Of a stretch of DNA of 64,000 nt, positions 36,124 through 49,020 are shown one piece after another. The notes below the pieces were generated by a model, which had not been told where the DNA came from, searched no databases, and saw nothing but the letters and a program-made list of their open reading frames with translations. The number at the start of each line of letters is the position of its first letter. Position 1 is the first letter of the stretch. Both the position numbers and the translations under genes were made by a program. Source of the stretch: Longimicrobiales bacterium (lineage in GTDB: Bacteria; Gemmatimonadota; Gemmatimonadetes; Longimicrobiales; Gaopeijiaceae); NCBI GenBank assembly GCA_965202805.1, contig OZ241869.1:1344001-1408000 (forward strand). Reading direction: 5' to 3'.

Positions 36124-36176
36124 AAAGTCTGCCATTTTGTCAGGTCCCGGCGGGAAAGTCTGCCATTTTGTCAGGT
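36124..36176. promoter_or_regulatory. Pair of dyad sites upstream of dnaK (candidate activator sites)
   Basis: AAAGTCTGCCATTTTGTCAGGT at 36124-36145 and 36155-36176; core CTGCCA-TTT-TGTCAG; 31 bp period. Confidence 0.75.
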
Positions 36177-36191
36177 TTCTCGTCGAAAAAG

Positions 36192-36207
36192 GGGCACGAA
36201 CGTTGCT
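36192..36207 (+). promoter_or_regulatory. Sigma-54 (-24/-12) promoter of dnaK
   Basis: GGGCACGAACGTTGCT versus consensus TGGCACG-N4-TTGCW; GG-N10-GC spacing exact; 53 nt before ATG. Confidence 0.78.
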
Positions 36208-36260
36208 CAACACCCGGCGACACCCCGTTATCGGAAACGCACAACATCCAAGGAGAACAG

Positions 36261-38189
36261 ATGAGCAAGGTCATCGGCATCGACCTGGGGACGACCAACT
36301 CGGTGGTCGCGGTCATGGAGGGCGGCGAGCCGGTCGTCATCCCCAGCGCGGAGGGCGGGCGCACGACGCCGTCGGTGGTGGCATTCACCAAGGACGGCGA
36401 GCGCCTGGTTGGCCAGGTGGCCCGCCGGCAGGCCATCACCAACCCGAAGAACACCATCTTCTCCATCAAGCGCTTCATGGGACGCAAGTCCTCCGAGGTC
36501 AGCGAGGAGCGCAAGCTGGTCCCGTACGAGGTCACCAGCGACGCGGGCGGGCGGGTGCAGGTCCGGATCCCCAACGCCGGCAAGACCTTCAACCCGCCGG
36601 AGATCTCCGCGCTCATCCTGCAGAAGATGAAGCAGACGGCGGAAGACTACCTCGGCCGGAAGGTCAGCCAGGCGGTCATCACCGTGCCCGCCTACTTCAA
36701 CGACGCCCAGCGCCAGGCCACCAAGGACGCCGGCAAGATCGCGGGCCTGGAGGTGCGCCGGATCATCAACGAGCCCACCGCGGCGGCGCTCGCGTACGGG
36801 CTGGACAAGAAGAAGGACGAGAAGATCGCGGTCTTCGACCTGGGCGGCGGAACCTACGACATCTCGATCCTCGAGCTGGGCGACGGCGTCTTCGAGGTGA
36901 AGGCCACCAACGGCGACACCCACCTGGGCGGTGACGACATCGACCAGGTGATCATCGACTGGCTGGTGACGGAGTTCAAGAAGGAGCAGGGCATCGACCT
37001 GTCGAAGGACTCCATGGCGCTGCAGCGGCTCAAGGAGGCCGCCGAGAAGGCCAAGATGGAGCTTTCCTCGACGATGCAGTCCGACATCAACCTGCCCTTC
37101 ATCACGGCGACCCGGGAGGGTCCCAAGCACCTCAACTACTCGCTGTCGCGCGCCCGCTTCGAGCAGTTGGCCGACGGCCTGCTGCAGCGGACCATCCCGC
37201 CGATGAAGGCCGCGCTGAAGGATGCGGGGCTCACGCCCGACGACATCGACGAGGTCATCCTCGTGGGCGGCTCGACGCGCATCCCGAAGATCCAGGAGAT
37301 CGTGCGCAGGTTCTTCGGCAAGGACCCGCACAAGGGCGTGAACCCGGACGAGGTCGTGGGCATCGGCGCGTCCATCCAGGGCGGCGTCCTGGCCGGCGAG
37401 GTCAAGGACGTGCTCCTGCTGGACGTCATCCCGCTGTCGCTCGGGATCGAGACCCTGGGCGGGATCATGACGCCGCTGATCGAGCGCAACACGACCATCC
37501 CCACGCGCAAGTCCGAGGTGTTCTCGACCGCGCAGGACAACCAGACCACGGTGGAGATCCACGTGCTCCAGGGCGAGCGCAAGATGGCGCTCGACAACAA
37601 GACCATCGGCAAGTTCCAGCTCACCGGCATCCCGCCGGCGCCGCGCGGCATGCCGCAGGTCGAGGTGACCTTCGACATCGATGCCAACGGCATCCTGAAC
37701 GTCTCGGCGAAGGACCGCGCCACCGGCAAGGAGCAGAAGATCCGCATCGAGGCCTCGAGCGGGCTCTCCGATGCCGAGATCGACCGCATGGTGCGGGATG
37801 CCGAGAAGCACGCCCGGGAGGACGAGGAGCAGAAGGAGAAGATCGAGGCGCGCAACCACCTCGATTCCCTGGTCTACCAGGTCGAGAAAGACACCGGCGA
37901 GTGGGGCGACAAGGTCGGCGAAGGCACGCGCGAGCGGCTCGACGAGGCGCTGGCGAAGGCGAAGGACGCGCTCAAGGGCGACGACCTCGCGACCCTCAAC
38001 TCGGCCCGTGACGAGCTGATGCAGGCCTTCAGCGCGGCCGGCCAGGAGATGTACCAGGCGCAGGCCGCCGAAGCCGGTGCGCCCGAGGATGCCCCCGACG
38101 AGGAGGCCGGGGACGGAACCGGAAACGGGGCGGCCGAAGACGACGACGTCATGGAGGCCGACTACGAGATCGTCGACGACGAGAAGTAG
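36261..38189 (+). CDS. dnaK: Chaperone DnaK (Hsp70)
   Basis: [45 protein letters not shown]. Confidence 0.99.
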
Positions 38190-38367
38190 TCCCCCGGAGG
38201 CGTCCGTGCGGCGCCGCGCCGGGCCATGTTCCCGCCGGGACAACTCTTGGGCGGCGCGGCGCATCGAAAGGGGCGCGCACAAACAGAGAGAAACCGGTGG
38301 CGCGGGGATGTGTAGCAGCAGTCAGCATCCCTCGCCCCGGCTGCAGAAATACCACAGGAGGCCAGGC

Positions 38368-39900
38368 ATGTTCGATCCCCTGAAGACCAAGATGAAAGTG
38401 ATCTTCTACGTCGCCCTCGCGTTCCTGGTCGGCGTGGGCGTCGCCTCGGGGATGGGATGGACGCAGGACGCGGTCGCAACCCCCGCGGTCTCGGTCGCTC
38501 CCCAGATCCCCGCCGAGGCGATTCAGCCGGCGCGCGACCTGAGCGATTCGTTCGTTCGGGTGGCGGAGGTGGTCACGCCCGCGGTAGTGAGCATTACCAC
38601 CCGCCGCGTAGTGCGAGCCACCGCCAGCGACCCTTTCCGCAACTGGTTCGGCACACCGGACCCCGAGCCGCGCGGCGGCAGCGGCAGTGGATTCCTGGTT
38701 TCGAGCGACGGCTACATCCTGACCAACAACCATGTCGTGGAGGACGCGGACGGCATCACGGTCCAGTTGGAGGACCGGCGCTCCTTCGAGGCGACCCTGG
38801 TCGGGGGTGATCCCACCACGGACGTCGCGGTGATCAAGGTGGAGGGCAGCGACCTGCCCACGGCCAGCCTGGGCGACTCCGACGGAGTGCGCGTAGGCGA
38901 GTGGGTGCTCGCGGTGGGCAATCCCGGCTTCGGGCCGGCCGGGGGGAACACCTCGTTCAACCACACCGTGACCGCGGGCATCGTCAGCTTCAAGGGTCGG
39001 CCGCTGGGCATCATCGGCAACGAGCTGCGTAACGACCCCGAGTCGCAGGAAGCCGCCCAGTACGCGATCGAGGACTTCATCCAGACCGACGCGGTCATCA
39101 ACCCCGGGAATTCCGGGGGGCCGATGGTCAACCTCGAGGGGCAGGTGATCGGCATCAATTCCGCGATCGCCAGCGGAGACGGCTACTACCAGGGATACGG
39201 CTTTGCGATTCCGATCAGCCTCGCGCGCCGTGTGATGGAGGATCTCATCGAGTACCGCGCGGTGCGACGCGCCTTCTTGGGCGTGCAGATCGGGCCGGTG
39301 GGGCCCGAGGACGCCGAAGTGTACGGGCTCCCCGAGGTGAGCGGCGCGCTGGTTCAGGACGTCACCGAGGGCAGGGCAGCCGAGGACGCGGGGCTGCAGC
39401 CGCAGGACGTGATCGTCGCCATCGACGACGACCCCGTCGACTACTCGAACCAGTTGCAGCAGCTCGTGGCGCGCAAGCGGCCGGGAGACCGGGTGCGCAT
39501 CGCGTACTACCGCGACGGCGAGCGGCAGGAAACCGAGGTCCGGCTGGGCGAGTCCCCGCTCAACGAAGCTGCCACCGCGGCGGCGCCCGAGCGGACGACG
39601 CGTGCCGAGGAGAGGCTGGGGATCGAGGTCGTGGACAACAGCCCCGAGCTGGCCCGGCGCTATCAGTTCCGCATCGACGATGGCGTGCTCGTCAGCGGCG
39701 TCACCCGCATGGGTCCCGCCGACCGGCGCGGCGTCCAGGCCGGCGACCTGCTTGTGCGCATCAACCGGCGGCAGGTGGAATCCGCGGATGAAGTCACGGA
39801 ACTCCTGGCCGATGTCCAGCCTGGCGAAATCGTCACGCTGGTTCTGGCCAACCCGGTCACCGGCCGGCAGCGCTTCACCAACATCCGCATGCCGGAGTGA
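38368..39900 (+). CDS. degP: DegP/DegQ (HtrA) serine protease with two PDZ domains
   Basis: GSGF, TNNHVV, DVAVIK, IQTDAVINPGNSGGP; two PDZ-like domains. Confidence 0.94.
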   Translation: MFDPLKTKMKVIFYVALAFLVGVGVASGMGWTQDAVATPAVSVAPQIPAEAIQPARDLSDSFVRVAEVVTPAVVSITTRRVVRATASDPFRNWFGTPDPEPRGGSGSGFLVSSDGYILTNNHVVEDADGITVQLEDRRSFEATLVGGDPTTDVAVIKVEGSDLPTASLGDSDGVRVGEWVLAVGNPGFGPAGGNTSFNHTVTAGIVSFKGRPLGIIGNELRNDPESQEAAQYAIEDFIQTDAVINPGNSGGPMVNLEGQVIGINSAIASGDGYYQGYGFAIPISLARRVMEDLIEYRAVRRAFLGVQIGPVGPEDAEVYGLPEVSGALVQDVTEGRAAEDAGLQPQDVIVAIDDDPVDYSNQLQQLVARKRPGDRVRIAYYRDGERQETEVRLGESPLNEAATAAAPERTTRAEERLGIEVVDNSPELARRYQFRIDDGVLVSGVTRMGPADRRGVQAGDLLVRINRRQVESADEVTELLADVQPGEIVTLVLANPVTGRQRFTNIRMPE

Positions 39901-48867: not shown

Positions 48868-48922
48868 GGGTTCGGGGAAGGCGATTCCCGGTCGGCCGTA
48901 GGGAGGGACAATTGGCTACTCG

Positions 48923-48947
48923 GGTCTGCCATTTTGGCAGACGCGCC
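48923..48947. promoter_or_regulatory. Palindromic operator-like site, proximal to argF
   Basis: GTCTGCCA-TTT-TGGCAGAC perfect 8-bp dyad within a 25-bp direct repeat. Confidence 0.75.
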
Positions 48948-48950
48948 CCC

Positions 48951-48979
48951 AAGCTACCACGGACGGCGGTCGCTGGGAA
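48951..48979 (-). promoter_or_regulatory. Putative sigma-70 promoter of argF-gcvT-bEBP
   Basis: TTCCCA-17 nt-TAGCTT with TGn extension; same -10 hexamer as the atp promoter candidate. Confidence 0.5.
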
Positions 48980-48995
48980 GCCGCGAAGGGCATGA

Positions 48996-49020
48996 GGTCT
49001 GCCATTTTGGCAGACGCGCC
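48996..49020. promoter_or_regulatory. Palindromic operator-like site, distal to argF
   Basis: Identical 25-bp copy GGTCTGCCATTTTGGCAGACGCGCC, 73 bp from the first. Confidence 0.75.

Follow-up and report, generated by a model that had tools for sequence, protein, structure and literature searches.

The window analyzed here is a stretch of 64,000 nucleotides from a Longimicrobiales bacterium of the phylum Gemmatimonadota (contig OZ241869.1, positions 1,344,001 to 1,408,000 of the forward strand), and the subject of the analysis is a palindromic dyad, GTCTGCCATTTTGKCAG, that lies at dnaK and at the argF-gcvT genes preceding the gene for a bacterial enhancer-binding protein (bEBP). The gene identities given in an earlier note on this DNA hold, and confirmation was obtained for dnaK, a degP-like gene, tig, clpP, clpX, engB, the bEBP gene, gcvT, an ornithine carbamoyltransferase gene (argF), hslU, hslV and xerC. 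The same note had described four copies of the motif as two pairs, and the exact matches were located at 36127 and 36158 (dnaK) and at 48924 and 48997 (argF); the chance expectation for the window is 0.09, even with three mismatches allowed. The reading that we consider probable is that the dyad is a site for the bEBP, which would activate dnaK and hsp20, likely clpB and, less surely, damp its own operon; in the genus of this bacterium genomic islands also end at the dyad, and they likely insert there.

At dnaK both dyads lie upstream of a sigma-54 promoter, GGGCACGAACGTTGCT, which ends 54 bp before the ATG (36261), and rpoN is present in the genome of the window (G000; other G numbers stand for the relatives compared and L numbers for individual loci). 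Of 49 dnaK upstream regions, that of G000 included, 46 have a matching sigma-54 site. The dnaK promoter of a Longimicrobiales record (L187) is of the type seen in this genus. Genomes outside the genus have a relaxed dyad, YGCCR-N3-YGGCR, at a retained position: in 27 of these genomes, matches before the dnaK promoter fell at 21–22 bp (16 matches), 41–42 bp (6) and 51–53 bp (13). The relaxed dyad-plus-promoter pattern was detected in 43 of 61 genomes, mostly at dnaK, and the reversed control in 11. The earlier placement of the dyads beside a dnaK sigma-54 promoter was thereby borne out, promoter and phased dyads being conserved across the order. Similar arrangements were observed at two other chaperone genes. 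At hsp20, a sigma-54 site with a dyad 12–13 bp upstream of it was found in 14 of 17 genus members, and at clpB a variant, TGGYCCG-N4-TTGA, was present in G000 and in 8 of the 20 loci fetched, with the dyads downstream of the promoter. Promoters of clpB in this family (L396–L405) use the sigma-54 variant that ends in TTGA.

Moreover, when the strict dyad-plus-sigma-54 pattern was searched for in GTDB, at least 119 loci were obtained, mostly from Bacteroidota. Flanks were available for 80 matches, of which 9 gave no open reading frame (ORF) and 71 a downstream ORF. This ORF encoded a chaperone or protease in 52 of the 80 (DnaK 17, GroES 10, HtpG 10, Hsp20 7, Lon 4, ClpB 3, and GrpE 1) and another product in 19, including RsfS three times and ferritin twice; the Bacteroidales rsfS (L144, L178, L185, L248) and ferritin (L166, L204) loci are candidate additional members of the regulon. 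Within the Fibrobacterota-Chlorobiota-Bacteroidota (FCB) group, the dyad and the sigma-54 site are thus jointly conserved at chaperone genes from Gemmatimonadota to Bacteroidota. These comparisons support a role of the dyad as a putative activator site upstream of the sigma-54 promoter of dnaK.

The motif is not confined to the window. The core TG[AC]CA-(TTT/AAA)-TG[GT]CA occurs 29 times in G000, the four copies of the window among them. Our own gene caller placed all 29 between genes, and intergenic sequence makes up 13% of the genome; controls gave no reversed core, one with a 2-nt spacer and four with a 4-nt spacer. The motif loci form 17 clusters, 16 exact and one near-exact, at dnaK, hsp20, clpB, lon, uvrA, argR, hutI/F, argF and qhpB, among others (gene identities from N-terminal sequences and the analyst's own reading), and three of the clusters sit where convergent genes end. 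The self-contained circuit proposed earlier was consequently not upheld, since the motif is found at 17 loci and the window holds one instance of an FCB-wide design. Most copies form helically phased pairs: the 14 neighbor spacings (21, 22, 30, 31, 31, 32, 32, 32, 32, 40, 42, 52, 73, and 85 bp) gave R=0.88 at 10.5 bp, a value reached in none of 100,000 draws from a uniform null, itself a crude one; a hand-compiled pool of 48 spacings at orthologous loci was left out of this statistic. Of the 18 other genus members, 17 have the exact 15-mer, against 2 of the 42 genomes from the rest of the order.

Several of these data weigh against a role of the dyad in activation. A sigma-54 promoter placed at the dyads was found in only 3 of the 17 clusters, and two more weak matches to the position weight matrix belong to adjoining genes; lon has a dyad and lacks a sigma-54 site; and the clpB promoter scored 10.1, a figure that is partly circular given that the training set included homologues.

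The palindromes might also act as RNA hairpins, either in transcript processing or as terminators that would, for instance, stop hslU transcription ahead of argF. Each argF copy folds into a stem of 7–8 bp and T runs follow several genomic copies, but terminator calling found none at the argF pair, the folding z-score was only -1.9, and the dnaK copies, which are imperfect, upstream of the promoter and helically phased, carry the signature of DNA binding. Hairpins are thus a highly improbable explanation, and the dyad is treated below as a protein-binding site.

Some other clusters were inspected individually. The argR dyads (L011, G000 3372277–3372311) lie just downstream of a likely sigma-70 promoter and are kept in the four genus genomes checked, so that argR and argF are two arginine loci carrying the motif. 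The uvrA dyad overlaps a likely -35 element, and uvrA appears leaderless. At L002 (G000 343215–343248), two to three dyads, 21 bp apart, were found within a quinohemoprotein amine dehydrogenase-like operon in five of five genomes checked.

The bEBP of the window was described by Pfam and alignment. It consists of a pseudo-receiver, an AAA+ domain with GAFTGA, a conserved helix LEFVFRTLVELRVDMDDLRR, a linker rich in Pro, Ala and Glu, and an HTH_8 domain with ERTLYRK; in the aligned Gemmatimonadota rows, Thr stands in place of the phospho-Asp of the receiver. Sampling of 61 genomes from the order, with G000 among them, gave an orthologue-level match in 57, often 6–12 kb from dnaK, and the C-terminal part was matched in 58 of 61 genomes phylum-wide. 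The clade has one member per genome in the FCB genomes sampled.

Sigma-54 transcription requires a bEBP, and dyad genomes that have a single bEBP therefore name the factor. Exactly one bEBP was counted in 5 of 15 dyad-hit genomes, all five from Bacteroidota (Amoebophilaceae, a Roseivirga genome titled complete, Porphyromonas catoniae, Prevotella, and a Cytophagales metagenome-assembled genome). When four of these sole proteins were compared with the six bEBPs of G000, the best score was obtained with the bEBP of the window in all four cases, and they share with it the post-AAA helix and the E(R)RTLYRK recognition helix. The trees grouped the sole bEBPs with the window protein, with support in the Shimodaira-Hasegawa-like approximate likelihood ratio test (SH-aLRT) of 98 for 63 rows, and with support of 99/97 for 39 rows, the latter after removal of 24 of the 63 rows, which were redundant orthologues and paralogues, one sole protein among them. 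In both trees the clade also holds other Gemmatimonadota proteins, one from Latescibacterota and one from Zixibacteria, and the other five bEBPs of G000 fall outside it. Additionally, a C-terminal hidden Markov model built from the five sole proteins scored the window bEBP at 64 bits and the other G000 bEBPs at no more than 31.5. Since the clade of the sole bEBPs excludes the other five proteins of G000, the bEBP of the window is very probably the cognate factor of the dyad, as the earlier note had proposed; the prediction of binding follows from the single-bEBP genomes and the trees. A further idea, that the residue before ERTLYRK (Ala, Ser or Gly) is linked to the strictness of the motif, was set aside; G046 and G026 carry Gly and have perfect sites.

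Three results speak against this assignment: the bootstrap of the 39-row tree had not settled; a first tree, of the AAA domain only (37 rows, several proteins missed owing to a strict filter), failed to unite the groups of Bacteroidota and of Gemmatimonadota; and no bEBP orthologue was recovered in the dyad-hit Kapaibacterium or Chthoniobacter genomes. The dyad could accordingly be bound by another bEBP or by a Fis-like nucleoid protein, the window bEBP being a syntenic neighbor only. The number of bEBPs in G000, the many sites without sigma-54 promoters and the dependence of the assignment on Bacteroidota genomes, mostly draft assemblies, and on long-branched trees would fit such a factor. 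Nevertheless, the five single-bEBP genomes possess the bEBP of this clade only, no free-standing Fis turned up when G000 was searched for HTH_8 domains, and the orthologue is nearly constant across the order, which makes another factor quite improbable and leaves the window bEBP as the preferred partner of the dyad.

The second pair of dyads bears on the expression of the bEBP itself. The gap between gcvT and the bEBP gene measures 87 bp. In most genus relatives they are separated by a moaB/mog-like gene, which in G001 has a stop codon overlapping the start of the bEBP gene, and the gap of G000 consists of the two ends of that gene. A separate bEBP promoter in this deletion scar is therefore unlikely, and argF, gcvT and the bEBP gene are likely co-transcribed, to judge from the moaB overlap. 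The earlier note had placed the argF pair around a putative sigma-70 promoter. The pair does bracket a conserved extended -10, but a scan with the sigma-70 consensus found no site at argF, and the promoter call is based only on that element (TGGTAGCTT/TGGTACCTT). The proximal dyad, in a repressor position, was found in 13 of 15 genus members, of which three have a sequence that has drifted; beyond the genus, only 9 of 26 genomes showed a significant dyad no more than 160 bp from the first gene of the operon. The autoregulation suggested earlier hence has a conserved position within the genus and limited conservation beyond it. Against it stand the absence of the argF dyad in G001, in G007 and in 17 of the 26 outside genomes, and the fact that one genus accounts for three of the nine outside positives, the match there doubling as a -10. 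Two RNA runs contained only 5–7% of the words and yielded short contigs of relatives. Bound at about +3 to +21, the bEBP would repress argF-gcvT-(moaB)-bEBP, and we put the chance that it represses its own operon through this dyad at about even.

The high number of perfect copies in the genus is likely explained in part by mobile islands. When 60 dyad loci were annotated in four genus genomes, many were seen to adjoin integrase genes of family PF00589. G000 is one of the 17 genus genomes, out of 19, that carry this integrase family, and the family was also found in 5 of 42 others; G001, G006, G012 and G017 have 29–33 or more copies per genome. Among 50 copies inspected, a sample drawn from nearly 300 matches and biased toward dyad users, a dyad was found 82–94 bp after the integrase stop in 16; the target is a tRNA gene for 11 copies and another site for 23. 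In a tree, the 14 dyad users that were long enough fell within one 20-row subgroup (SH 91), which also contains four tRNA users and two others. The subgroups of the family target tRNA-Leu, -Ile, -Val and -Pro genes (named by eye), a CCGCCGTTACGTCAGG-type site and the heat-shock dyad, and no tRNA target was found at dyad-linked island ends in 24 loci.

The host sides of the dyad-linked integrases map to dyad loci of G000, namely hsp20, uvrA, hutI, a rhomboid gene and a TRAP gene end, and for 10 of 14 elements a dyad was seen 36–37 bp away from the opposite (left) arm. Islands with this integrase subgroup have a full dyad at each end, and near-identical arms join the dyad in either orientation (L416, L417). 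In G002, both ends of a 12-kb island align with an empty dyad pair of G006. A core duplicated at both ends, an integrase beside one of them and an empty site in a relative, as expected of an attachment site, were therefore all found, and the islands likely insert at the dyad in this genus. With a full dyad at each end, insertion would keep the host site intact and add a copy. Island insertion thus likely helps to explain why many perfect copies are found in this genus alone. By contrast, G009 has 25 dyads and no such integrase (E≤1e-40), and G007 has 19 integrases and no exact 15-mer; these two genomes count against the proposal, so integration alone does not explain the expansion. In G000, a 7.7-kb stretch upstream of uvrA has dyads at either end with arms next to them, and no integrase lies within it. 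This locus (L009, G000 3311900–3320800) holds a duplicated uvrA promoter and 5' end and a toxin-antitoxin-like pair, and has the appearance of an integrase-less island. At the distal argF dyad of G008 there is an adjoining arm remnant; an insert of 1.7 kb lies there on the hslU side, and its far end has no matching dyad.

It might be argued from these islands that the bEBP activates dnaK, hsp20 and clpB, and that insertion targets and scars, similar to repetitive extragenic palindromic (REP) elements and of no regulatory function, make up the argF pair and most of the other perfect copies, so that autoregulation would be absent. The near-confinement to the genus of both the exact 15-mer and the integrase family, the element arm beside the distal argF dyad in G008 and the three clusters between convergent gene ends agree with this. 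However, the proximal argF dyad holds a fixed distance to the -10 despite its sequence drift in G002, G010 and G012, a dyad near the operon promoter recurs outside the genus, and the pair spacings remain in helical phase. We therefore regard this reading as unlikely, and keep to a dyad that likely serves the bEBP and, in this genus, the islands as well.

The features of the window are given in Table 1. The degP-like gene has no site of its own and may be transcribed by read-through from dnaK.

Table 1. Coordinates of the dyads, promoters and genes discussed, as positions in the window.
Feature	Position	Strand	Remarks
Distal dnaK activator dyad (predicted)	36127..36143	.	Center about -82; phase conserved across the order
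Proximal dnaK activator dyad (predicted)	36158..36174	.	Center about -51; 31 bp from the distal dyad
Sigma-54 -24/-12 promoter GGGCACGAACGTTGCT	36192..36207	+	Near-consensus
dnaK	36261..38189	+	NCBIfam DnaK, above cut-off
degP/htrA-like protease gene	38368..39900	+	No dyad or sigma-54 site of its own
bEBP gene	44911..46704	-	Pseudo-receiver, AAA+ with GAFTGA, HTH_8
87-bp gap, fused ends of deleted moaB/mog-like gene	46705..46791	-	
gcvT	46792..47910	-	
argF (ornithine carbamoyltransferase family)	47938..48867	-	
Proximal argF dyad, candidate autoregulatory operator	48924..48942	.	At about +3 to +21 relative to the inferred start for sigma-70
Inferred extended -10 TGGTAGCTT	48951..48959	-	Conserved in the genus
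Distal argF dyad	48997..49015	.	73 bp from the proximal argF dyad
hslU-hslV	49068..51135	-	No upstream dyad or sigma-54 site

The grouping of chaperone and protease genes in the window (degP, tig, clpPX, hslVU) had been pointed out in the earlier note. In the spacers of degP, tig, clpP, clpX, engB, hslV and hslU neither a dyad nor a sigma-54 site was found, so the clustering is not evidence of a regulon and was discarded as such. A tRNA-Leu-like gene, read by eye, lies at about 40030–40120, between degP and tig. Convergent on the bEBP gene, 44205–44816 (+) encodes a probable secreted protein of 203 aa with no Pfam or NCBIfam match, whose place beside the bEBP is kept in many genomes of the order.

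The relation to other heat-shock regulators was also analyzed. G000 has HrcA and a single perfect CIRCE (controlling inverted repeat of chaperone expression), before groES; CtsR was not found in this genome, nor was RpoH above cut-off. At dnaK no CIRCE, CtsR box or HAIR (HspR-associated inverted repeat) was found, HspR having been sought by its HAIR site only and not as a protein. The earlier view of a regulator distinct from HrcA, CtsR, HspR and sigma-32 agrees with these results, but HrcA keeps groES, and the bEBP would therefore work beside HrcA and not instead of it.

In the mechanism that we propose, bEBP dimers on the dnaK dyads, 31 bp apart, would oligomerize and open the sigma-54 complex through GAFTGA, both steps being established biochemistry of bEBPs, and dnaK, hsp20 and (likely) clpB are predicted to be switched on in this way. 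Since the receiver lacks the phospho-Asp and the Bacteroidota orthologues lack a receiver domain, the signal is likely not phosphorylation; titration of the bEBP by chaperones such as DnaK is a guess. Insertion of an island at a dyad would leave the host site whole and multiply the copies. A route would thereby exist for mobile DNA to multiply the sites of a regulator and reshape its regulon, and not every perfect copy of the motif need then be regulatory. A more far-reaching reading is that the bEBP is a master heat-shock activator shared across FCB, independent of phosphorylation, and that the islands of the genus have come to target and duplicate its sites, bringing genes such as uvrA and argR into the regulon. 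Activator occupancy would then couple island excision or insertion to protein-folding stress. We consider this extended version unlikely as a whole.

Sigma-54 promoters of chaperone genes have already been published. In Flavobacterium psychrophilum, those of groES-EL, lon, dnaK, grpE-dnaJ, htpG and clpB carry a sigma-54 motif (SM4), and a sigma-54 regulator adjoining lptE is listed in the accessible part of that article, which names three PF00158 proteins, assigns none and describes no upstream dyad (PMC9723704). Sigma-54 chaperone regulons have been predicted in Bacteroidota and Planctomycetota, with promoters enriched at GroEL/ES, IbpA, GrpE, DnaJ, DnaK, Hsp90, Clp and Lon; in its accessible text this is a promoter-only survey that contains no "Gemmatimonad-" and describes no activator site (PMC12316311). 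The activator is likewise not covered in the accessible part of PMC3162934. In the literature searched, neither an activator nor its dyad was found for chaperone sigma-54 promoters, and the literal motif strings returned irrelevant matches only. For Bacteroidota and relatives, promoters have thus been mapped, and the parts of the literature examined do not name the activator or its site; the single-bEBP argument points to one protein and one 13-bp site. The position beside lptE is also that of the sole Bacteroidota bEBPs seen here (lptE recognized by eye). Unlike F. psychrophilum, as far as its description extends, the present host is a member of Gemmatimonadota, HrcA/CIRCE retains groES, and the activator has an additional pseudo-receiver. 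The core idea of the earlier note is probably right, as an instance of this FCB-wide design and not as a local circuit.

The closest classical counterpart is NtrC, which has a Fis-type HTH_8 domain, binds tandem dyads about 32 bp apart at glnA with a CCAAAATGG-like core, activates at sigma-54 promoters and represses the sigma-70 promoter of its own operon. The system of the window has in common with it the HTH_8 domain, the tandem dyads with a similar core and the predicted sigma-54 activation; self-repression, about as likely as not, would be a further parallel. By contrast, the bEBP scored 327 bits, under the NtrC cut-off of 558.6 and under all 25 NCBIfam cut-offs shown, and it lacks the phospho-Asp; in comparison with glnA, the sites at dnaK, centered at about -51 and -82, are nearer to the promoter, and at clpB they follow it. 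As to the islands, no report of the dyad as an integration site was found in the literature searched, whose coverage was incomplete. What is new here is a tyrosine-integrase subgroup that sets island ends at fixed distances from this dyad, hsp20 and uvrA being among the loci. Tyrosine-integrase islands target tRNA genes or palindromic/REP sites, and the present ones resemble them in the PF00589 integrase near one end and the core duplicated at both ends, but differ in that the core is a likely activator site, present in many copies and used in either orientation.

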